UHGV virus genome: UHGV-0038300
From: a virus
Length of the DNA: 39,892 nucleotides
Strand: one strand, 5' to 3'
Shown piece after piece: positions 2,415 to 33,430 of the stretch. Made by a program: the position numbers and the translations under genes. Within the stretch, counting starts at the first letter, position 1. Each line of letters opens with the position of its first letter. The notes below the pieces were generated by a model. That model was not told the origin of the DNA. It worked only from the letters and a program-made list of their open reading frames with translations, and ran no database searches.

Positions 2415-4955
2415 TCATTTTTTTACATTGCCATTTTCAATGGCGAAAATTCTCTCTTCCATATTATCAATTCTCTCCCAGCATTGCTGAATTGATTTAA
2501 CAATAGGTGGGATGAATTCATCGTAACCAAGTGAGTAAACATCATCCCCACCATTTTTCAAGTGATGCTGTAGCCCACCGAACTCAACACCTAATTTTTC
2601 ACACAGTTTCAATACGTCCTGTGCAATAAACCAGTGATGGTATCGTTGACGTTTTTTACTGCCGTCAGGAGTTTTCTGCACTACTTCAAGATATTTTTCT
2701 TCGACATTCTCAATAGCTGATACAGTAATTCCATCAACATCTCGCTCTACTTTTTTTGGTACAATTCTTGTTTTTTCAATAACATCAACATAATCATCAC
2801 GCATATCCCAGCGACCATCGACAGGACGAAGCCCAAGGATAAATTCAATCCCCAGCAAGGTATCTCGGATATCTGTTTTATCACGCGCATCAGATCTGTT
2901 TTGCACAGTTCCATATACATATGTCGTTGTGGAAGAATTGCCAAGCTGCACCTGGTTACTTCCAGACACCCTTGCATCATTGCCAACAGTTGTTGTGTTG
3001 GTAAGTGATGATGTGCTTTCCCCTGATTGAGTTAATCTACCTGAATTATGTCCAATAGCCGTGTTTAATGCGCCGGTTGTATTTGTGACAAGAGAGCCAG
3101 ACCCAATTGCAACGTTACTGCTTCCCGATGTTGTTCCTTTTAATGCCTGCTGTCCAACCGCAACATTATTATCACCCGTTGCTGCTATAAGTGCCATGTG
3201 ACCAATAGAAACGGTAAATGAACCTAGCGTTTGAGTTTCACCGCATGCCCCATAACCAATTACAACAACATTATCTGTAATTGTTGACTCGGTTGCCGCT
3301 CCAGCACCAATAACAACGCTTTCATTCCCGGCAAGATTCTTGCGCATTGCGAACATTCCAATGCCAACATTATCATGCCCAGTCCCTGTACCTGCTGCCT
3401 CCGCAGCACCAAGACAGTTTCCCGCTCTGTAGCCAACCATGGTGTTATTTGAACCAATAGAGAAGTCTCCGGAAAAAGAGCCTACGTATACACTATTAGA
3501 CTGAGAGTAATCTCCAGGATTTCCATTCGCCCGATATCCTACTGCAACTGTATAAATAGTATCTGGAGCCTCAGCCATGGCCTCAAAGCCAACTCCAACG
3601 TTATATCTACCGCCCTTAACTTTTTCTCCTGCACCAAGTCCGAAGAATGAGTTATAGCTCCCGGTTGTTAGCCACTCGCCAGCAACAGAACCTACAGCAG
3701 TGTTTCCTGTTCCAGTACATCGATACAAAGTCAGGAAGCCAACTCCGGTATTATTATTTCCTGAAATATTACTCATCAATGATTTTGACCCAATGGCAGT
3801 ATTGTTAACACCATCGGTCAGATCCTGTAACGCTCGCGGGCCAAATGCTGTATTATCGTAACCCTTTGGCGCTGTTGTTGGATCTGGTAACTCAGGGGTT
3901 AGTTTTTCACCACCACCACCATTGGCACAAAGATTGTAAGATCGAATAAATTCAGCCACTGGCCCAAGTTTTAAATAACCATTGGCAATATTAATTCTGA
4001 CACTTACATTAACTGAGCTACCAGGAGCTTCTATTGTCCTGTCATCAACCCAGGTAAAACTCTGTGGTATCCCGTCATAAGTTAATGTCACATCTCCTTT
4101 ATCATTATAATTATAGAACAATGTATAACGCTCATTTATAGATTCAGAACCTGATGATCCTCCTCTCCTCCACCACTCTGCATTATCAAAAATAAGTAAT
4201 CCCGGACCATAATATTTAGCTTTCTGCCCCAAAATCATAGGGCTTGATAATCTCCATACCCCCTCAGGAACATATATATTGCTACTTATTCTTTCAGCAT
4301 TATTAAAAGCAGTATCACATAGCTCGTCACCACCTTCTTTAGCTCCAAAGTCCAGAACACTGACAGTATCCCGCATCTTATCCTGGAACGTTCGATATAC
4401 TGCTCCAGAACCATACTGAATAAACCAACCAAAACCACCAACAACCCCGGCGATTGCAGCATCGACATAATTACGCATTGAGCGATTATTTACAGCGTCC
4501 TGCTCAAGTGATGGATCTGCAAGGTTAGAAATTCTGTTTTGCTTTGCATCGTAATATTTTGCAAGCAAAGATGGTTTCATCAATGCACGTCTGAACCATC
4601 CAAAACATTGCTGGATCAGCATCGTCAGATAGTCAAAGGCATCTTCATGCACCTCGGGGAAAAATTTTCCCTGATTACGAAGATCAGTCTCCTGCACCAC
4701 ATCAAGCACACGATCTATCGTAATTCGCCATCCAGCAGCAAGCGGCGACGGAAGAACAACAGAACCGCCACTATAAGTGCCCGCCCCAGTTACCGTATAA
4801 CCGGTATCCAGAACCAATTCTGTTACGTTCCCGTTCAGGTCAGACACCTGAACAACCAGGTCGGATTTTTTGAAAATACGGAAGGTGTACGGGAATGATG
4901 TCGTAATGCCGTTACCGGTGTATTCGTTGTGGTCAACTTCGGTTGAGACCGTCAT
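2415..4955 (-). CDS. Tail fibre with glycine-rich fibre repeats and a C-terminal peptidase S74 intramolecular chaperone domain
   Basis: N-terminal TGNGITTSFPYTF fibre-anchor-like motif, long G/N/S-rich repeats, and the C-terminal autoproteolysis motif ...NRSDARDKTDI... followed by a chaperone-like domain. Confidence 0.85.
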   Translation of the reverse strand: MTVSTEVDHNEYTGNGITTSFPYTFRIFKKSDLVVQVSDLNGNVTELVLDTGYTVTGAGTYSGGSVVLPSPLAAGWRITIDRVLDVVQETDLRNQGKFFPEVHEDAFDYLTMLIQQCFGWFRRALMKPSLLAKYYDAKQNRISNLADPSLEQDAVNNRSMRNYVDAAIAGVVGGFGWFIQYGSGAVYRTFQDKMRDTVSVLDFGAKEGGDELCDTAFNNAERISSNIYVPEGVWRLSSPMILGQKAKYYGPGLLIFDNAEWWRRGGSSGSESINERYTLFYNYNDKGDVTLTYDGIPQSFTWVDDRTIEAPGSSVNVSVRINIANGYLKLGPVAEFIRSYNLCANGGGGEKLTPELPDPTTAPKGYDNTAFGPRALQDLTDGVNNTAIGSKSLMSNISGNNNTGVGFLTLYRCTGTGNTAVGSVAGEWLTTGSYNSFFGLGAGEKVKGGRYNVGVGFEAMAEAPDTIYTVAVGYRANGNPGDYSQSNSVYVGSFSGDFSIGSNNTMVGYRAGNCLGAAEAAGTGTGHDNVGIGMFAMRKNLAGNESVVIGAGAATESTITDNVVVIGYGACGETQTLGSFTVSIGHMALIAATGDNNVAVGQQALKGTTSGSSNVAIGSGSLVTNTTGALNTAIGHNSGRLTQSGESTSSLTNTTTVGNDARVSGSNQVQLGNSSTTTYVYGTVQNRSDARDKTDIRDTLLGIEFILGLRPVDGRWDMRDDYVDVIEKTRIVPKKVERDVDGITVSAIENVEEKYLEVVQKTPDGSKKRQRYHHWFIAQDVLKLCEKLGVEFGGLQHHLKNGGDDVYSLGYDEFIPPIVKSIQQCWERIDNMEERIFAIENGNVKK

Positions 4956-5058
4956 GTTAAATCTCCAGATAGTCGCAGCACCCGTTGCGCCGCATATCTG
5001 GTTATTCTATTACCTGAAAAACCACATATGGATAGAAAGACTATAAATACCAATAGAT

Positions 5059-5075
5059 ATTACCTTTCGGGTAAT
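5059..5075. promoter_or_regulatory. 17-bp palindromic operator-like site ATTACC-TTTCG-GGTAAT
   Basis: Perfect 6-5-6 inverted repeat belonging to the dispersed site family; upstream of the LexA box and the tail-fibre gene. Confidence 0.6.
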
Positions 5076-5113
5076 TTGCAAAACGTGCTGGATAGCAAAC
5101 AAATTATTTGCTA

Positions 5114-5129
5114 CTGTATAAATATACAG
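5114..5129. promoter_or_regulatory. LexA (SOS) box CTGT-ATAAATAT-ACAG
   Basis: Perfect CTGT-N8-ACAG with an AT-rich spacer (tactgtataaatatacagtt), 22 bp upstream of the ATG at 5151. Confidence 0.8.
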
Positions 5130-5150
5130 TTATTGCATGGAGAAGATAAG

Positions 5151-5408
5151 ATGCAGCAGTATCACTATCCACTGGAAGACGGATTTACCGAAAGGATTCA
5201 CACGCCGGGAGGCGTCAGATCACTGGTGGAGGGATCGCACTTGATGAAATTACTCCGGGATCTCGATAAGGATGGATTTAATGTCGATGGCCCACTTGCC
5301 GAACTGACTGCACTGATTAACTACGTCACCAGCTCACAGATGTCTATGCGGGATCTGCAAACACATCTCGACTATTGTGCCGAACAATTACGAAAACAAA
5401 CCCGGTAA
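5151..5408 (+). CDS. Small (85 aa) antirepressor-like protein, homologous to the C-terminal domain of the Bro-N antirepressor; candidate SOS-inducible antirepressor
   Basis: RBS ggagaag then ATG 5151. Aligns with the C-terminus of the 6555-7247 product (PL..G....IH.P.GV..L.E.S.LM.LL..L..DG..V.G..AELT......V......RD.QTH..Y). The upstream part of the listed ORF is occupied by regulatory sites. Confidence 0.7.
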   Translation: MQQYHYPLEDGFTERIHTPGGVRSLVEGSHLMKLLRDLDKDGFNVDGPLAELTALINYVTSSQMSMRDLQTHLDYCAEQLRKQTR

Positions 5409-5430: not shown

Positions 5431-6159
5431 CTATCGTTTCGCTTTGTGCTCATCCCAGCACGTTTTGCACCATGCCATTAAGCCGTCCGCATTTTGATTA
5501 TTAGGGTAAAAGCTGGTTCGTTTTCTGCGGACATTACAAATTGGGCACCACTTCATATGGCGTGTATTCTTTGGGCCATCGAGACACCTTGCACACCACT
5601 TAGTCAATCCATCTGGATTTTTTGACGATTTCCTGAATTTTTCATATGGAAGGTTTATTCTGCATCGCAAGCACTGCTTGCTACCACTTGAAACTCTGTT
5701 AGCTGATTCTTCTTTTGGCGGCGATACAGAAGGTATTCTTGCTGGCTCTGATACTGCCTGAGGTGCTTTTTTAGATGACTGAGACGATATGTCACCACCA
5801 GGGAATCTTCCATGATATGCCGGACGCGTTGACACTCCAGGTGGAAGCTCAGCTGTAAACGGCTTTGGCTGAATCAGTTGCCTCTCTTTTGCTAACTCCT
5901 GCTGTTTATAATATGTCTGGATTACCGCACTATCATAAGCAGGAGGTGCGGAAATATTAGGCGCATTACCTCCAGTTTTTTGAAACTGAGTAGAGGTGTG
6001 TTCTATCACCTGTGTACGATTAATCGTTATCTCCCCATCTTCGGTCTTTATCGTTTTGTTATGATTAACGACCGTACGATCAGAGATCTTAGTCTTGTTC
6101 TGGTTGATAACGTAAATAATCACCGCAACCACACCAACAACTATCCAGAAAACTTCCAT
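5431..6159 (-). CDS. Membrane-anchored protein with a C-terminal duplicated Cys-rich (zinc-ribbon-like) module; function unknown
   Basis: N-terminal TM helix (MEVFWIVVGVVAVIIYVI), Pro/Ser-rich linker, then CLRC...WCARC and CPIC...WCKTC repeats; RBS gaggaaaag before the ATG; operator-like site just upstream. Confidence 0.6.
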   Translation of the reverse strand: MEVFWIVVGVVAVIIYVINQNKTKISDRTVVNHNKTIKTEDGEITINRTQVIEHTSTQFQKTGGNAPNISAPPAYDSAVIQTYYKQQELAKERQLIQPKPFTAELPPGVSTRPAYHGRFPGGDISSQSSKKAPQAVSEPARIPSVSPPKEESANRVSSGSKQCLRCRINLPYEKFRKSSKNPDGLTKWCARCLDGPKNTRHMKWCPICNVRRKRTSFYPNNQNADGLMAWCKTCWDEHKAKR

Positions 6160-6178: not shown

Positions 6179-6195
6179 ATTACCTTAAAGGTAAT
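6179..6195. promoter_or_regulatory. 17-bp palindromic operator-like site ATTACC-TTAAA-GGTAAT
   Basis: Perfect inverted repeat about 20 bp upstream of the 5431-6159 gene start (minus strand). Confidence 0.6.
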
Positions 6196-6271
6196 ATCTT
6201 GCTTTCAGGTGATCAAGCGTTAAACCAAATCAACCAAATACGGTTGATTTTAATATTTCTTCACGTTTATC

Positions 6272-6288
6272 ATTACCTTTGAGGTAAA
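6272..6288. promoter_or_regulatory. 17-bp operator-like site ATTACC-TTTGA-GGTAAA overlapping a putative rightward promoter
   Basis: Overlaps a -10-like TATCAT (6268-6273) set 18 bp after a -35-like TTGATT (6244-6249). Confidence 0.5.
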
Positions 6289-6554
6289 TTTACATCGCAC
6301 TCCTCTTGTGCCATAGTAATCGGGCACTGGCAAAATCCAGTGCCGGGATTGGTCTCCCGGATTACTACAGAGGCACATATGCCGCATAAGCGGTTTTTTT
6401 ATGTGTAAAGCGCACCTATTCTATGGTGGGCTGTGTGGGGGCACCGAAAGGTGCGCCGGGTTCCTTTGTAGCCGGTAAGACCAACTCTGCACAGTTCACC
6501 ACCATCTGATTGGTCTCAGCGGTGGTGATTAACCTAACTACAAAGGTGATCGCC

Positions 6555-7247
6555 ATGAATACCAAACCTTCCATCTTTTCCTTTGAGTCATCCTGCCAGA
6601 TCCGTATGTTCATGATTGACGGAGAACCTTGGTTTGTCACCAAAGATGTGTGCAATGCTTTGAATATTGATGTTACACAAGCGAGAAAACTTGATAAAAA
6701 AGGCTGGAACAAAAAGGGGCTGTATTCAATACAGACCCCTGGTGGAATACAAGAACTATCCATCGTTTCAGAATCAGGTCTCTACATCCTTATTCTGCGT
6801 TGCAAAGAGGCAATGACAGGGGGAACGAGAGCATTCAGATTTCTTGAATGGGTTACAGGTGAGGTTCTTCCTCAGATCCGCCGCACAGGAAGTTACATTA
6901 AAAACTCGCTCCCGCAGGAAGAACGCATAAAGATGGTTGCCGACCAGGTAGCCAACGCCACGGCGTCAGCAGTAATGCAGGCGATGAAGATAGAGAACAA
7001 AACCTACAGTGCCCCGCTGAAGCCCGGCTACCGCAGCCTGATTCATTCGCCGTCTGGTGTTCTCGGCCTGACGGAGAACTCACTGCTGATGAATTTGCTG
7101 AACCAGTTACAGGAAGACGGGCATGATGTATCGGGCGCGGCAGCGGAGCTGACCACCATGTTCTGCTACATCGTCGGTGTGAGCAAATGCCTGCGTGACA
7201 TCCAGACTCACGCGGAGTACATCAACGACAAAGCAGGGTTCTTCTGA
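6555..7247 (+). CDS. Antirepressor with an N-terminal Bro-N domain
   Basis: N-terminus ...FSFESSCQIRMFMIDGEPWFVTKDVCNALNI... is typical of Bro-N/Ant proteins; RBS aaggtga before ATG 6555 (the listed ORF begins at an upstream TTG). Confidence 0.8.
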   Translation: MNTKPSIFSFESSCQIRMFMIDGEPWFVTKDVCNALNIDVTQARKLDKKGWNKKGLYSIQTPGGIQELSIVSESGLYILILRCKEAMTGGTRAFRFLEWVTGEVLPQIRRTGSYIKNSLPQEERIKMVADQVANATASAVMQAMKIENKTYSAPLKPGYRSLIHSPSGVLGLTENSLLMNLLNQLQEDGHDVSGAAAELTTMFCYIVGVSKCLRDIQTHAEYINDKAGFF

Positions 7248-7311: not shown

Positions 7312-7328
7312 ATTACCTTAAAGGTAAA
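7312..7328. promoter_or_regulatory. 17-bp operator-like site ATTACC-TTAAA-GGTAAA
   Basis: Inverted repeat about 25 bp upstream of the 7354 start codon. Confidence 0.55.
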
Positions 7329-7353: not shown

Positions 7354-7563
7354 ATGGGATTTTGGTTCGCTCGTACAAAAACGAGGGATAATGCACCCAG
7401 CCCTCAGGCAAAAAATGCAGAAGTTCCGGCGTCAGCGCAGGTTAACAAGCGTGGTGGAGTATATATCTCATCACAGCAAATTTCTGAGCTTCCTGAGGTT
7501 AAGGAGATGCGTCGTCTCGCTGCTGCAATTGTTAAACAGGATCTTGCCACTGTAAGGAAGTAG
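7354..7563 (+). CDS. Small hypothetical protein (69 aa), first gene of a two-gene accessory module
   Basis: Strong RBS gaggaggag 6 nt before the ATG; its stop TAG overlaps the GTG start of the next ORF by one nucleotide. Confidence 0.55.
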   Translation: MGFWFARTKTRDNAPSPQAKNAEVPASAQVNKRGGVYISSQQISELPEVKEMRRLAAAIVKQDLATVRK

Positions 7564-8429
7564 TGTTGCTAGCTCTTCTAATTATCCCAATCCTGGTTAG
7601 CGGTTATATTATGATAACCGCTAACCAGTATCATTATTTCCGTTTATACCGACACGAAGGCCAGCTTCTTTATATGAAAGTAGCGGCACTAGGTACATAT
7701 TGCCTTGTTGCATCAGTAATAATTGCAGCCGCTATAAAATATAAATGGCCTGATTTTCACCTAGTTCACGATATGGTGGAAACTTTTAATGTAACATCAA
7801 AACCAGAAACAGATAGAATTTACATGTGGCTGCTTCTTCTCTCAGCCACATCCATTTGCTTCTCTTTGTGTTATGTGTCTGTTGTGTGGGTGAAAGATTT
7901 TCTTCTTGGTTGTTTTTATAAACGTGATATTTACGAGCAAAAAACAGAGGCAATGAAGGCCAGAGTACTGCGAAAAACTTACTCGCAAGGTTCTTTAGAC
8001 TTACTATTGCTTGATGCTATTGAATCGGATCCTAAACGACCAATGCTGATTACTTTATCATCAAACAAAGTGTATGTTGGAATAATAAATGGTTCTGGTG
8101 AACCAACGGAAAATCAGGGTCCGCATCAGCACATATCTTTTGTTCCTTTAATGTCAGGATACAGGAACAAAGAAAACTTATCTGTCACATTCACTAATGC
8201 TTATCCAGGAGAAATACAGGTCAAGCGGACTGCAGCAATAAGAGGAATTAGCAGAAAGAAAGTGCCAGGACTTGAGATCATGGTGTCTATTGACGAAATA
8301 AGTTATATATCATGGTTTGATTTTGAAGTATATAAAGCAACAAATAACAAAGTAGAATCCAGGGGGCACGTTATTCGTGTTACCAAAAATGGAAGAAATA
8401 TATATCAAAGAAATAGCAAAAAAGAATAG
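7563..8429 (+). CDS. Hypothetical membrane protein (3 N-terminal TM helices plus a ~170-aa soluble C-terminal domain); candidate exclusion/abortive-infection-type accessory protein
   Basis: Long ORF with hydrophobic helices at about aa 2-18, 35-58 and 85-110; markedly AT-rich compared with flanking phage genes; exact start (GTG 7563 or a nearby codon) uncertain. Confidence 0.6.
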   Translation: MLLALLIIPILVSGYIMITANQYHYFRLYRHEGQLLYMKVAALGTYCLVASVIIAAAIKYKWPDFHLVHDMVETFNVTSKPETDRIYMWLLLLSATSICFSLCYVSVVWVKDFLLGCFYKRDIYEQKTEAMKARVLRKTYSQGSLDLLLLDAIESDPKRPMLITLSSNKVYVGIINGSGEPTENQGPHQHISFVPLMSGYRNKENLSVTFTNAYPGEIQVKRTAAIRGISRKKVPGLEIMVSIDEISYISWFDFEVYKATNNKVESRGHVIRVTKNGRNIYQRNSKKE

Positions 8430-22664: not shown

Positions 22665-22957
22665 TCCTGTTCACTGGCCTCTTTGGCCATCTTCAAATAC
22701 TGTTCAGGGCAATGCGCCATAACGCGCTGAAACAGTTCCAGCGCCAGATTGCGTTGCCCCTCATTAAATGCCATTGCCATAGCGTCCATCGGTGAGATAG
22801 CGGAAAACACACGGCCTTTCTCCAGCACAGACCAGACAACGCGACGCCCCTGTTCACTGCTCATGACAAAGCGAATGTCATCAATTTCACGCTGTGCCAT
22901 GTCACGTTGCGTACGGGCGTTTTCTTCTTTCAGTTGATCGTCTTCGTAATCTGTCAT
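22661..22957 (-). CDS. Small hypothetical head protein
   Basis: 98-aa ORF overlapping the portal stop and scaffold start. Confidence 0.45.
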   Translation of the reverse strand: MTDYEDDQLKEENARTQRDMAQREIDDIRFVMSSEQGRRVVWSVLEKGRVFSAISPMDAMAMAFNEGQRNLALELFQRVMAHCPEQYLKMAKEASEQE

Positions 22958-24633
22958 TGTGATTGCCCACCCTGACCACTAACTGCATTCGCCATAGCTG
23001 ACAACACACTCGGATCCGAAGTTTTAGCTTCGCTTAGCGTCTTGGCCCCCTGTGCCGCCGCCATCCCCATCGCCATCATTTGTTGCTGCTGTTGTTGCTG
23101 TGCCCGTTGCTGGCGAGCCTGCTCAACCTGTTCCTGCGGAACAATGACGGTTGGAGACACTCCGGACATATCAGCGAATGCATCGATCGCCTGATCAACG
23201 TTGAGTTTGTCGAGAGCTTCTGGTTTCGCTTGCGCAAGTTGACCAATGAAGTTGACCGTAGACGCCAGACTGGACAAGCCGATAGACTTCTGCGCCTGAG
23301 CCATGACGGAAATGTATTCGACCTTCAGGGGCATACCTTCCATCACGTCTGGCGGTGGCGGCAGCATGTTTTTACGCACCATCATCGAGAAAGAGCGATC
23401 AATGAGAGGATTAAGACATTCGTCGTTCAGGCGCTCCAGAACCGGCCCCAACATCAGAAGTTTTTCTTCTTTCATTTCGATCACCGCTTCCACAGGCATC
23501 GAGCGGGTATTGATGTTCTGCAACATCATGAACAGATCGACAAAGTAGGCGCTGTTAATGATTTGACGAGTGTCCTGAATGTCTGCCACCAAATCTGCTG
23601 TACTGGGGTTAACCAGATAAGCAGGCCTGAAACCATCCTGACCAGTAATCTGATCGATATACGTGATGTCGCCAGGAAGAAGGGAGGCACGCTGATTCTT
23701 GAGGGAAGTCGGAGCAACCATCGGCGGATTGGTGGCTTTATCAATCAACTGCGACTTGCGCTTCTGGAGAAGCTGCAATGCCTTAACAGGTCCAAGCGCC
23801 AGCATACCCGGGCATGATGATCCATAAACATCTTCGCCGTTAACTTCCCAGCGCGGAGCCATAATTGGAAACTCATCGAATCCTGACTCACGCAACAACT
23901 TGTCGTTATCGCCACCAACCTCGTAATAAACCGATTTGAATGGCTTGTTCTTGCTATCCAGCTTCGATGTATCGCGGTCAATGTTCGGGTAAACCGAATG
24001 CATCACTTCAATCCACTTCTCGTAGGTGCCGCTTTCCCACATGCTTTTTACGGATTCGCTGACGTTATTTAGCCCGAACTCCTGAACAAGCTGACGAACA
24101 GTCATAGAGAACTTACGAAAACATGTGTCCACACTGCCACGAGGTGAGTTAGCCAGGTAGTAACTACCTATCGGGAATGGCATTGTGCGAATTATGTCCT
24201 CGTCATCCTCCAGCACCGCCATTGCACCAGTGCTGTATGTGCCGAGGCTTCCGTATAACTGCGGAAGAGACTGGTAGAGATTCGACTTATTGAACATATC
24301 GTTCATGCGGTTCTGAACTGCCTCAAGCCACAACTTAACAGGGCCATAATCCATCATTTCAGGATCTGGCGTAGCCAGGCGAAACCACGGACGCACGGGG
24401 CTTGTGATGCCTGACATCATGCCGCTGGCGAGAGTGCGCGCCGCCATAGTCCCGGTCGAATCAATAATGCGTGTATTGCGCCGATCGTTACGGTTGGCCT
24501 CAGAAGTCAGAAAGCGGGAACCACGCGGGTTGATGTAATCACTCAACTCGCGCCAGTGCGGCTCGAACGACTGACGCTCGCTTTCAAGTTGTGCGAACTG
24601 TTTGTTCAATCGCTCTTTAGTTGTTTCCGCCAT
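22954..24633 (-). CDS. Portal protein
   Basis: 559-aa ORF upstream of scaffold and capsid with a Gln-rich C-terminal tail; size and position as for podovirus portal proteins. Confidence 0.75.
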   Translation of the reverse strand: MAETTKERLNKQFAQLESERQSFEPHWRELSDYINPRGSRFLTSEANRNDRRNTRIIDSTGTMAARTLASGMMSGITSPVRPWFRLATPDPEMMDYGPVKLWLEAVQNRMNDMFNKSNLYQSLPQLYGSLGTYSTGAMAVLEDDEDIIRTMPFPIGSYYLANSPRGSVDTCFRKFSMTVRQLVQEFGLNNVSESVKSMWESGTYEKWIEVMHSVYPNIDRDTSKLDSKNKPFKSVYYEVGGDNDKLLRESGFDEFPIMAPRWEVNGEDVYGSSCPGMLALGPVKALQLLQKRKSQLIDKATNPPMVAPTSLKNQRASLLPGDITYIDQITGQDGFRPAYLVNPSTADLVADIQDTRQIINSAYFVDLFMMLQNINTRSMPVEAVIEMKEEKLLMLGPVLERLNDECLNPLIDRSFSMMVRKNMLPPPPDVMEGMPLKVEYISVMAQAQKSIGLSSLASTVNFIGQLAQAKPEALDKLNVDQAIDAFADMSGVSPTVIVPQEQVEQARQQRAQQQQQQQMMAMGMAAAQGAKTLSEAKTSDPSVLSAMANAVSGQGGQSQ

Positions 24634-24943: not shown

Positions 24944-24960
24944 ATTACCTTTCAGGTAAG
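24944..24960. promoter_or_regulatory. 17-bp operator-like site ATTACC-TTTCA-GGTAAG
   Basis: Member of the dispersed site family; 16 bp downstream of a TTGACA hexamer (24923-24928) in the non-coding region upstream of the tRNA. Confidence 0.5.
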
Positions 24961-25281: not shown

Positions 25282-25358
25282 GTGGCATTAGCTCAGTCGG
25301 ACAGAGCAACCGCCTTCTAAGCGGTTGGTCGCAGGTTCGAATCCTGCATGCCACGCCA
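25282..25358 (+). tRNA. tRNA-Arg (anticodon UCU, reads AGA), 77 nt with encoded CCA
   Basis: Hand-folded cloverleaf: acceptor gtggcat/atgccac, D-stem gctc/gagc, anticodon stem accgc/gcggt with loop cTTCTAa (U33, A37), T-arm gcagg-TTCGAAT-cctgc, discriminator G, CCA. Confidence 0.85.
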
Positions 25359-25674: not shown

Positions 25675-27150
25675 TTAAGCATAGGGATCGTAATCTGTGA
25701 TGGCCTTGCCTTGCTGGTTCTGCTGCCCGGGAATTCGCAGACGCTTCGACACAGGGAACGCAAACGTCAGCAGTAGCGCATCGCCTTTACCCGGCGAACG
25801 CCCAAGCCGCTCCTTGATATCCTCCTTCGGTTCGATAACGATTTTACCGTCCACGCGAACTTTGTACTCTGCCGCCGACAGGTCGTCTGCAGTTTCCTGG
25901 TCATCCAGCATTCCGCCCAGCCTCAGCCATGTCTTACATGAGTTGAACATCTCCCCACGCTTGTTAAGCATCTGCGGGTCAGTGGACGCACCGCCGAACG
26001 GAACAAGTTGCCATGTACGCCCCCAGCCATCACCGATTGACTTCAAACCGGTTCCGTAACCGAAGTCGATGAACACCGCGTCAGCCTGATACTGGTCTTC
26101 AAAGTCAGCGATACGCTTCGCCATAATCAGATCGTCGGTAGTCTTGTTGCCAGTCCACAGCACCTTACTGTGTAGCCCCTGCCGCAGGTATATCACCGCG
26201 TCATCAACGCCTGAATATGCCGGGTCAACACCGATTATCACCGGAGCATGCGCCACCTGCGCAGCGGTTACCACCCGTTTCATTGCCTCATCAGTAAGAC
26301 CGGTAGGGATAAACTGCAATTCAGATGCATCAGGGAATATGCCGCGCACACGGATTTTAACGAAGTCGCTGTCTTCCCCGTAGTCATCAACCCATTTCTG
26401 CAACTGCTGTTTGTTAGTGCCTTCCACCGTCCGGCTGTCAATCTGCGCACACTTCCAGCGGTGTTTATATTTGCGGAAACATTCGCGGAAACGCCCGGTG
26501 TTACGTGTAGGGTTTCCGAACGCCACCCAGATAATCTCAGTGTCTTCGTCCGTAAGCGCACCCTCAGAAACTTCCCATACCAGATCCGCAATGTTCGACG
26601 CTTCATCGAATACCACGATGATGCGTTTGCGCTCGTTGTGTAGTCCGGCGAATGCCTCAGTGTTGTGCTCAGACCAGGGGATTGCGTCAGCTCGCCACCG
26701 CTTGTCGTGCCCAGGATCATTGCTGTACATCGCGGTAGCGGTACAGGTAAACCAGTCTTTCGTGATAGCAAGGTTCGACCACTTGATAATTTCCGGCCAG
26801 GTCTTCGTTCGTAGCTGGTTGTCGGTGTTGGCGGTCACCACGACCTTACAATCCTCGCAAGTGGACATGCCCCAGTTGATCAGCATTGAGATGAATGCGG
26901 ATTTACCAATACCGTGACCAGAAGCGCGTGCCAGCATAAGCGGCTGATAGCGCGTCTCTGGATTCTGCAGGTGATCACGTATCTCTCGGAACGCATCAGC
27001 CTGCCACTGACGTGGGCCGGTAGCATGTGCCAGTTCAGTCCCCTCTTCCCCCCACGGGAACGCATAGAGGGCATAGCCAAGCGGATCGTGAGTGAACCCT
27101 GCAATATCCTCGATCAACTGCTCTTCAGGAGATAACGCTGTATCTGTCAC
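25675..27150 (-). CDS. Terminase large subunit
   Basis: 491 aa with a Walker-A-like GHGIGKS ATPase motif in the N-terminal part, immediately downstream of the small-terminase gene; the nuclease domain was not individually identified. Confidence 0.85.
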   Translation of the reverse strand: MTDTALSPEEQLIEDIAGFTHDPLGYALYAFPWGEEGTELAHATGPRQWQADAFREIRDHLQNPETRYQPLMLARASGHGIGKSAFISMLINWGMSTCEDCKVVVTANTDNQLRTKTWPEIIKWSNLAITKDWFTCTATAMYSNDPGHDKRWRADAIPWSEHNTEAFAGLHNERKRIIVVFDEASNIADLVWEVSEGALTDEDTEIIWVAFGNPTRNTGRFRECFRKYKHRWKCAQIDSRTVEGTNKQQLQKWVDDYGEDSDFVKIRVRGIFPDASELQFIPTGLTDEAMKRVVTAAQVAHAPVIIGVDPAYSGVDDAVIYLRQGLHSKVLWTGNKTTDDLIMAKRIADFEDQYQADAVFIDFGYGTGLKSIGDGWGRTWQLVPFGGASTDPQMLNKRGEMFNSCKTWLRLGGMLDDQETADDLSAAEYKVRVDGKIVIEPKEDIKERLGRSPGKGDALLLTFAFPVSKRLRIPGQQNQQGKAITDYDPYA

Positions 27151-32845: not shown

Positions 32846-33430
32846 ATGAAAAGTATCCAGGACGTCCGCAGGCAAAATCTCAACGACTTGATCGACCGTG
32901 AATTCAATGGTGTTCAGACGCGGATGGCAGAAAAACTTGGAACTCAGGCAAATCTGGTAAACCGCTGGGCTCTTGGCAAGAAGGTTATCGGCGACCAGGT
33001 TGCGCGAAAAATTGAAGCTGCCGCCAATAAACCACGTAACTGGCTTGATATCGATCGCTCGCTTTCTCAGGAAGGTTTTCAGCCTGTCGGCCCAAGCGAC
33101 ATTGGTCAGCTGGCGGCTCACAACCTGGAACGCTGGATGAGCGAAAGCCGCGACCTTTCAACACAGGGAAAACTTCACCGCGCATCCGGCGTCGCCCAGG
33201 TGACAATCAGCCGCCTGTTAAACAATGAGGTCAGCGTTTCCATTTCCACCCTGGAGAATGTTGCATCCGCATTCGGGCGTCACGGCTATGAATTACTGAT
33301 TCACCCGCACGACCCTGCGACCATCAACTATGACCGCTCGCGCTACGCATTGTTACCCGAAACCGAGAAAGCAAAGATCGAAAGTTACATTGAATTTGTC
33401 ATCAACCAGAACGAAAAAAACAAACAATAA
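32846..33430 (+). CDS. CI-like prophage repressor with an N-terminal XRE-type HTH, a second HTH-like segment and no LexA/S24 peptidase domain
   Basis: HTH ...VQTRMAEKLGTQANLVNRWALGKK...; no Ser-Lys peptidase signature seen; divergent from the cro-like gene and followed by a strong terminator. Confidence 0.65.
   Translation: MKSIQDVRRQNLNDLIDREFNGVQTRMAEKLGTQANLVNRWALGKKVIGDQVARKIEAAANKPRNWLDIDRSLSQEGFQPVGPSDIGQLAAHNLERWMSESRDLSTQGKLHRASGVAQVTISRLLNNEVSVSISTLENVASAFGRHGYELLIHPHDPATINYDRSRYALLPETEKAKIESYIEFVINQNEKNKQ

Follow-up and report, generated by a model that had tools for sequence, protein, structure and literature searches.

The interval at positions 6196-6554 of the virus genome UHGV-0038300, immediately upstream of the antirepressor gene ant, is very probably an antisense-RNA immunity cassette of the type known from immI of phage P1, here carried by an epsilon15-like temperate podophage. 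By the window we mean the whole stretch of DNA that was analysed (39,892 nucleotides, nt). An Rfam scan of the whole window returned two full-length matches in the interval: the leader RNA family isrK (RF01394; 74.7 bits, E 2e-14, vs. a gathering score of 50) and the antisense RNA family C4 (RF01695; 78.6 bits, E 7e-14, vs. a gathering score of 45, model positions 1-87). A preliminary description of this DNA, made from the letters alone, had likened the interval to P1 c4 or P22 sar. The P1 half of that suggestion was borne out, as the C4 search was positive and the layout matches P1 immI point by point. The antisense RNA, however, does not lie in the hairpins described at that stage, which form the a1/b1 IsrK leader, but in a separate 88-nt fold at 6419-6506; this fold, the 9-nt complementarity between 6463-6471 and 6538-6546, and the promoter at 6289-6317 had all been overlooked.

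The elements of the cassette, in the coordinates of the window, are these:

6179-6195, unstranded: O1, a perfect and operator-like palindrome, ATTACCTTAAAGGTAAT, 20 nt ahead of where the divergent gene 5431-6159 starts
6244-6273, plus strand: upstream promoter candidate P_up, TTGATT-18-TATCAT, 9/12 consensus matches, predicted transcription start site (TSS) about 6280
6272-6288, unstranded: operator-like palindrome O2, ATTACCTTTGAGGTAAA, covering the -10 box and +1 of P_up and abutting the -35 box of the downstream promoter
6289-6317, plus strand: family-conserved promoter, TTTACA (6289-6294)-17-(TG)CATAGT (6312-6317), predicted TSS about 6324
6324-6400, plus strand: IsrK / c4-a1b1-type leader RNA, 77 nt (Rfam isrK)
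6324-6343, plus strand: leader hairpin 1, with compensatory changes among loci
6344-6359, plus strand: leader hairpin 2, displaying a1 in its loop
6347-6356, plus strand: a1 box, GAUUGGUCUC, whose core UUGGUCU pairs with a' of C4
6364-6373, plus strand: b1 box, ACUACAGAGG, 9 base pairs (bp) with b', one of them G-U
6381-6394 plus U7 (to 6400), plus strand: intrinsic terminator of the leader, GCCGC-ATAA-GCGGT
6419-6506, plus strand: C4-type antisense RNA gene, 88 nt (Rfam C4)
6463-6471, plus strand: b', CCUUUGUAG, able to pair with b2 and b1 and located in the hairpin 2 loop of C4
6478-6484, plus strand: a', AGACCAA, able to pair with a2 and a1 and located in the C4 linker, which is single-stranded
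6508-6517, plus strand: a2 box, GAUUGGUCUC, adjoining C4 at its 3' end
6521-6528, plus strand: GGUGGUGA, complementary to the 3' strand of C4, UCACCACC (6496-6503)
6538-6546, plus strand: b2 box, CUACAAAGG, 8 nt from the ant ATG at 6555 and overlapping the Shine-Dalgarno sequence (AAGGUGA, about 6543-6549)
6555-7247, plus strand: ant, the regulated gene, a 230-aa Bro-N antirepressor (Pfam Bro-N, E 2e-13)

RNA folds, box pairing and co-variation

The 281-nt leader at 6290-6570 folds with a z-score of -5.2, beyond chance, in keeping with its earlier description as highly structured; the isrK part alone gives -2.8. Every local stem that had been pointed out is present: the 8-bp perfect stem GGCACTGG (6323-6330) with CCAGTGCC (6337-6344), the alternative stem CCGGGA (6343-6348) with TCCCGG (6355-6360), the enclosing stem 6314-6324 / 6357-6367, which pairs at 10 of 11 bp, and the hairpin with its T7 run at 6381-6400, which was also found by the terminator scan. 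In the predicted fold of the 77-nt leader, b1 is single-stranded. The 5' arm of the enclosing stem, which buries b1, is the -10 region of the family-conserved promoter, and the stem is therefore only possible in transcripts from the upstream promoter; the additional pairing predicted for these transcripts, again covering b1, joins 6307-6321 to 6360-6377. Among epsilon15-like phages the enclosing stem is maintained solely through changes compatible with G-U pairing, the wider family lacks it, and we regard it as unproven. The RNA of about 120 nt ending near 6400 that had been forecast is expected from the upstream promoter only; the family-conserved promoter predicts 77 nt.

The minimum free energy fold of C4 is the model structure, a long closing stem enclosing two hairpins, with a z-score of -4.5. 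Compensatory (double) changes are found at 16 of its 27 pairs, and across 16 loci the pairing of the closing stem is complete (100%). The mature C4 is predicted at 6425-6503 (79 nt), as mapped through the model alignments from the annotated ends of P1 C4 (48343-48419). All elements of the cassette lie on one strand, with no promoter found between C4 and its target. An alternative hairpin, UCACCACC:GGUGGUGA (6496-6528), holds a2 in a 17-nt loop, and compensatory versions of it exist in Apl-pPE4, P4, and P1. This hairpin excludes the closing stem of C4 and may therefore govern C4 processing or the presentation of a2.

Perfect pairing links b' to b2 over 9 nt across the Shine-Dalgarno sequence, a' to a2 over 7 nt, and a' to a1 over 7 nt, and over all 39.9 kb of the window the combined arrangement of a and b targets is found at 6349-6373, at 6510-6546, and nowhere else. 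Parts of this had been noticed before: the direct repeat GATTGGTCTC exists, with its second copy at 6508-6517 rather than 6507-6516, and AGACCAA is present, at 6478-6484 rather than 6468-6474.

To compare cognate with non-cognate pairs, we took 18 phage loci, among them P1, P4, and Gifsy-1, and recorded, free of register, the longest perfect complement of the unpaired b' and a' segments in the target zones. These counts replaced RNAduplex energies of the whole C4 effector region against target windows, which were too noisy because GC-rich stems pair promiscuously, so that cognate targets came first in only part of the rows. The b':b2 complement averaged 8.4 nt (range 6-10) for cognate pairs vs. 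4.5 nt for non-cognate ones, and a':a1 reached 7 nt in 18/18 loci vs. 3.8 nt. In 17 of the 18 loci the end of b2 lies 7-16 nt before the downstream ATG; in IdasGreatGrand b2 lies over codons 2-4.

Co-variation was counted in a MAFFT alignment of the whole cassette from 16 sequences. The complete annotated structure had 92% of cells paired, vs. about 40% in slid controls, and 34 of 60 pairs were changed on both sides, a number reached in 0/500 shuffles. In the a':a2 helix, 92.5% of cells were paired and all five variable pairs showed double changes; the a1:a' helix was 95.5% paired over the 16 loci, with changes on both sides at 5 of 7 pairs. Within the epsilon15 group the a box reads GGUCUC (window, Tyrion, ST512phi13.3), GGCGUC (phiV10, ZX5), or GAGACC (Kp4865-1), and each variant is altered in all three copies together; the C4 box type of phiV10 is GGCGUC/CUAAAAGG. 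Judged from these sequences, the variation looks like heteroimmunity of the P1/P7 type.

Promoters, operators and phage context

The promoter-like TTGATT-18-TATCAT at 6244-6273 and the palindrome ATTACCTTTGAGGTAAA that overlaps it at 6272-6288 were both found as previously reported. P_up has equivalents whose -10 box abuts the operator in phiV10/ZX5 (TTTGCA-18-TATATT) and Tyrion (TTTGTA-18-TATTAT), so that two promoters stand in tandem as they do in P1. The -35 and -10 boxes of the downstream promoter stand at a fixed 6 nt from the isrK 5' end in 18/18 loci and coincide exactly, in P1, with the annotated promoter P1c4/P51b. To judge by its boxes, the promoter at 6289-6317 is the homologue of P1 P1c4/P51b and P4 PLE, and P_up takes the place that P2c4/P51a has in P1. 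A perfect 9-bp inverted repeat, AAATCAACC-N6-GGTTGATTT, together with a tandem AACCAAAT repeat, is located at 6223-6250, over the -35 box of P_up.

The 17-bp palindrome ATTACCTT-N-AAGGTAAT has about 14 sites in the window vs. 0.74 expected, and 0/100 shuffles contain as many. Operator-like sites of this kind begin at 5059, 6179, 6272, 7312, 24944, 27760, 30382, 30444, 32390, 32775, 33487, 33549, and 39668; they are mostly intergenic and cluster around a gene with a double helix-turn-helix (HTH), 32846-33430, whose product is a candidate repressor. The scattered sites resemble the dispersed operators of a regulon such as that of P1 C1. At the cassette, the TTACC-N7-GGTAA site stands next to the -35 box at a constant position in 6/6 epsilon15-like loci. 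Three features make the palindrome at 6272-6288 credible as an operator: the motif is over-represented in the window, clusters at the double-HTH gene, and keeps its position beside the -35 box.

The 39.9-kb window represents an epsilon15/phiV10-like (Uetakevirus) temperate podophage with EC.W1-9, TL-2011b, ZX5, and phiV10 as nearest relatives, and the cassette is flanked by a tail-fibre gene (2415-4955, minus strand) and virion genes. Ant is 81% identical to the ZX5 ORF4 anti-repressor, the C-terminal halves being identical. Overexpression of ZX5 ORF4 cut prophage titres 1000-fold, i.e., it lowers lysogeny; the ZX5 study makes no mention of a small RNA (PMC9782041). With its Bro-N domain and this identity to ZX5 ORF4, the output gene of the cassette can be taken as an antirepressor, the inactivation of a repressor by its product being putative.

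Several neighbours of the cassette deserve mention. The open reading frame (ORF) 5028-5408 (plus strand, start probably near 5151) is a homologue of epsilon15 p19 / phiV10 p24 and is preceded by the operator site 5059-5075; its C-terminal ~75 aa match the C-terminus of Ant (43% identity, E 7e-20), and it may be a second protein with a repressor-binding module. Between this p19-like gene and the cassette is inserted the gene 5431-6159 (minus strand), which encodes 242 aa with a hydrophobic N-terminal segment, a Cys-rich C-terminus, and a weak Stc1 match, and which is absent at the equivalent position in phiV10 (L001), ZX5 (L015), Tyrion (L014), and the AR_0085 prophage (L018); numbers with L are our labels for the loci compared. 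Directly downstream of ant, the operator site 7312-7328 lies ahead of two ORFs (69 and 288 aa) within 7354-8429, for which a Pfam search gave no match. Farther away, a tRNA gene at 25282-25355 (Rfam, 73.3 bits) occupies the gap between ORFs 22954-24633 and 25675-27150, with the operator site at 24944 close by.

Proposed mechanism and competing explanations

In P1, C4 is released from a read-through transcript, with processing by RNase P, pairs with a2 and b2, and blocks ribosome loading; its pairing also leads to premature termination. Mechanisms of the C4 type were worked out in P1 and P4 in the 1990s, the reference cited for P1 being Citron and Schuster 1990. From the family membership, fold, complementarities, and co-variation of the window's cassette, we infer a similar course of events. 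Transcription would start from tandem promoters, at about 6280, where O2 over the -10 box and +1 would place it under control of the repressor, and at the family-conserved site at about 6324. Part of the transcripts would stop at 6381-6400 and yield the small IsrK/a1b1 RNA, while those that read through would carry C4 (6419-6506), presumably cut out as an RNA of ~79 nt, as in P1 and P4. Its b' (CCUUUGUAG) and a' (AGACCAA) would then pair with b2 and a2 of the ant mRNA, and because b2 covers the Shine-Dalgarno sequence, we propose that ribosomes would not load and no Ant would be made in the lysogen. The leader boxes a1 and b1 would compete for the same segments of C4, so that abundant leader would titrate C4 and allow ant to be translated, whereupon Ant would inactivate the prophage repressor. 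No icd-like or orf45-type ORF coupled to ant was present, none of the window's ORFs lying between b2 and ant, and the economical reading is therefore that C4 acts directly on the ribosome-binding site (RBS) of ant. Coupling of the icd type is a feature of P1 itself and not of the C4 RNA family.

The part assigned to the leader draws on Gifsy-1, in which translation of anrP rises more than 100-fold when IsrK is provided in trans and the pairs G28:C162 and G31:C159 were verified experimentally (PMC4825925). In our own alignment these two pairs map onto a1:a', and orf45 starts at the conserved AUGGUGGG. It is conceivable, though we would not put it at even chances, that IsrK, P1 a1b1, and P4 seqA are one part, a trans-acting terminated decoy leader for a C4-type RNA, and that the Gifsy-1 "orf45" mechanism amounts to titration of the C4 RNA STnc1160, which would block the antirepressor RBS. 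If so, the epsilon15-like cassette, having no coupled ORF, would be a clean system for proof. Tied to that reading, and equally tentative, is the idea that the two promoters would make leaders of different decoy strength, a trait particular to the epsilon15-like group.

Several observations weigh against the P1-type interpretation. The decoy role of a1/b1 agrees with the Gifsy-1 data in trans and with only part of the results from cis mutants: basal translation of anrP goes up when a1 is mutated in cis, which a simple decoy does not explain (Table 1D, PMC4825925). The Rfam model c4-a1b1 (RF03163) stays below its gathering score (39.9 vs. 46.7 bits, E 1e-8) at 6311-6363, a position that is the same as that of the above-threshold matches in P1, Gifsy-1, VT2-Sakai, APSE-1, Stx2_EH0787, and Apl-pPE4. 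In the MAFFT alignment, which places the a boxes well, the b helices come out only ~66% paired, probably through misalignment of their loops, which vary in length. Both promoters match only 9/12 consensus positions, and the centre of O2 lies at about -44 relative to the TSS at 6324, where the outcome for the downstream promoter could be repression, no effect, or even activation.

The strongest competitor, which we nevertheless regard as unlikely, is that the same RNAs act as in P4, mainly through premature transcription termination upon pairing with the upstream and downstream boxes (seqA/seqC), with the RBS block not primary. The C4 model does match the P4 CI RNA (74.9 bits) and the isrK model the P4 seqA region (60.8 bits), the boxes co-vary in P4 too, an intrinsic terminator comes right after the leader's a1/b1, and the same analogy was drawn by Hershko-Shalev et al. 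(PMC4825925). Yet the position of b2 over the Shine-Dalgarno sequence, which with the exception of IdasGreatGrand is shared by the loci compared, is a placement for translational block. In P1, termination is reported to follow from translational repression (Biere, Citron and Schuster 1992). The two mechanisms are not mutually exclusive. Taking the Gifsy-1 IsrK model literally, a locked long transcript would be opened by the leader, a small ORF at AUGGUGGG translated, and ant expressed by translational coupling. This model has experimental support in Gifsy-1 (PMC4825925), and the window shares the isrK family match and the identical order of isrK, C4 (= "orf45"/STnc1160), and antirepressor. For the window we consider it very improbable: the ORF that begins at the conserved AUG in the 5' strand of C4 (AUGGUGGG) has 28 aa here (6423-6509) and stops 45 nt before the ant ATG, its counterparts over the 18 loci run from 14 aa upward in varying frames, the longest with a stop having 123 aa, an overlap of its stop with the antirepressor start is seen in Gifsy-1 only, and substitutions that preserve base pairs show selection at the RNA level.

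Two further explanations, each of which strikes us as barely tenable, dispense with a trans-acting C4 RNA. A plain transcriptional attenuator or an opposite-strand RNA of the P22 sar type would accommodate the terminator-like hairpin with U7 in the leader, and there is a weak minus-strand promoter-like site (6640-6612) directed back across the ant start. That site, however, matches only 9/12 positions, where 2.1 such sites are expected by chance in the region, and no minus-strand terminator follows it; sar itself gave no Rfam match even at E<=10, and the three-way co-variation of the a and b boxes would go unexplained. The P22 sar comparison in the preliminary description was accordingly dropped, for want of both a sar match and a convincing minus-strand promoter-terminator pair. 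The other explanation has the region coding for small proteins, such as an Ash-family peptide, in place of RNAs. The interval does contain short ORFs, 6401-6478 and 6423-6509, which qualifies the earlier statement that it holds no convincing ORF; the translation of 6423-6509 matches Pfam Phage_ASH (E 1.7e-4), and in relatives the corresponding DNA is annotated as "ash family protein", "orf34", or "orf37". The Phage_ASH score is below the Pfam cut-off, however, and among relatives the frame and length vary, indels do not come in multiples of three, and base pairing is maintained through the substitutions. The immunity factor of P4, moreover, is the CI RNA. As the frames are not conserved among relatives, in which respect the earlier statement holds, the protein-coding reading was rejected despite the sub-threshold match.

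Distribution and comparison with known systems

The leader is present in 467 of 5426 complete E. coli genomes, in 113 of them at >=99% identity, and RefSeq leaves the interval unannotated in a prophage with an identical leader. Identical, unannotated copies number over 100 among these genomes; strains that have one include E. coli VR50, MS8345, and AR_0085. Elsewhere, proteins are annotated over isrK/C4 RNA genes under the names "ash family protein", "orf37 immunity region", a "Rha protein" that is too long at its N-terminus, "orf34", and, in P4, "cI gene product". Such annotations or ORFs over the RNA genes are found at:

window, 6423-6509
L015, 1666-1779
L006, 1288-1971
L005, 1125-1961
L010, 1125-2273
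L003, 1563-1736
L017, 8168-8584

The protein annotations over isrK/C4 are probably artefacts of the RNA genes. A match to another RNA family, sRNA-Xcc1 (RF02221), was found in the Stx2a phage Stx2_EH0787 (L011, 2143-2226), ~560 nt downstream of its C4 cassette; this family has been reported in whitefly APSE phages too (PMC7313666).

The tandem of isrK and C4 was present in 15/15 fetched phage loci and in P4. In P1, C4 and c4-a1b1 score above threshold, and isrK scores only below it, at the a1b1 position (35 bits, E 4.5e-6). The Rfam families isrK (RF01394, no clan) and c4-a1b1 (RF03163, clan CL00128) overlap in Gifsy-1, VT2-Sakai, APSE-1, Stx2_EH0787, and Apl-pPE4; under the locus labels, overlapping matches are recorded at L002 1482-1571, L003, L004, L011, L013, and L016 48217-48311. 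This overlap, together with the isrK match to P4 seqA, suggests that IsrK, a1b1, and seqA are the same element, and the two families seem redundant.

Similar to the window, the P4 system has a C4 match at its CI RNA and an isrK match at the seqA region, and its boxes and alternative hairpin co-vary. P4 differs in the 107-nt spacer between leader and CI, and its output is termination of the replication operon rather than control of an antirepressor. The P22 immI region (sar, arc/mnt/ant) resembles the window in having an RNA-controlled antirepressor among the late/tail genes of a podophage; its sar RNA, in contrast, is encoded on the opposite strand and fully complementary to its target, and nothing of the kind is detectable in the window.

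The Gifsy-1 isrK-orf45(STnc1160)-anrP locus shares with the window a terminated leader of 77 nt, in which the three hairpins are the same, a C4-type RNA downstream of it, and then an antirepressor. Its a1:a' pairing has been verified and its leader shown to activate the antirepressor in trans (Hershko-Shalev 2016, PMC4825925); Hfq binding and trans-activation by IsrK have been shown for Gifsy-1 only. The authors noted the processed RNA STnc1160 downstream of IsrK and compared the locus with P4 seqA/CI, not with P1 C4 (PMC4825925). Unlike Gifsy-1, the window has no ORF overlapping the ant start, and its a and b boxes differ in sequence and hence in specificity; the Gifsy-1 cassette also follows antQ in a lambdoid prophage. 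The APSE phages of Hamiltonella, likewise small podophages, carry c4 and isrK in tandem directly upstream of a Bro-N "anti-repressor" gene, with different boxes (GAGACC / CUAACAAGG) and other neighbouring genes. For these phages, the presence of isrK and C4 beside the Bro-N gene and the complementarity of a'/b' to the region upstream of it have already been noted (Rouil 2020, PMC7313666). For Uetakevirus phages we found no description of an isrK and C4 cassette in the literature.

The closest parallel is P1/P7 immI. The P1 record gives the order operator Oc4, promoters P2c4 (P51a) and P1c4 (P51b), a1 b1, C4 (48343-48419), a2 b2, icd, and ant, and the window likewise has a repressor operator, two tandem promoters (spaced 44 nt, vs. 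40 nt in P1), and an a1/b1 leader followed by a terminator-like hairpin. C4 has the same fold and carries b' in its hairpin 2 loop and a' in its linker; a2 comes directly after C4, b2 lies over the RBS of the first gene, the a2-b2 spacing is nearly equal (29-30 nt), and an antirepressor is the final output. In P1 that first gene is icd, whereas the window lacks an icd-like intermediate ORF, so that b2 covers the Shine-Dalgarno sequence of ant itself. The window's Ant is a 230-aa Bro-N protein in place of Ant1/Ant2, its operator is a 17-bp palindrome (TTACC-N7-GGTAA) rather than the asymmetric C1 operator, and its cassette stands beside a tail-fibre gene in a 40-kb integrating podophage. Family, fold, and logic are thus already known, and the window's cassette is a typical, previously unannotated member that leaves the known principle of C4-type control unchanged. 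It would explain how an antirepressor that tips the relative ZX5 from lysogeny to lysis stays off, and it predicts immunity types within the genus, comparable to P1 vs. P7, the a box having at least three variants and the b box at least two.

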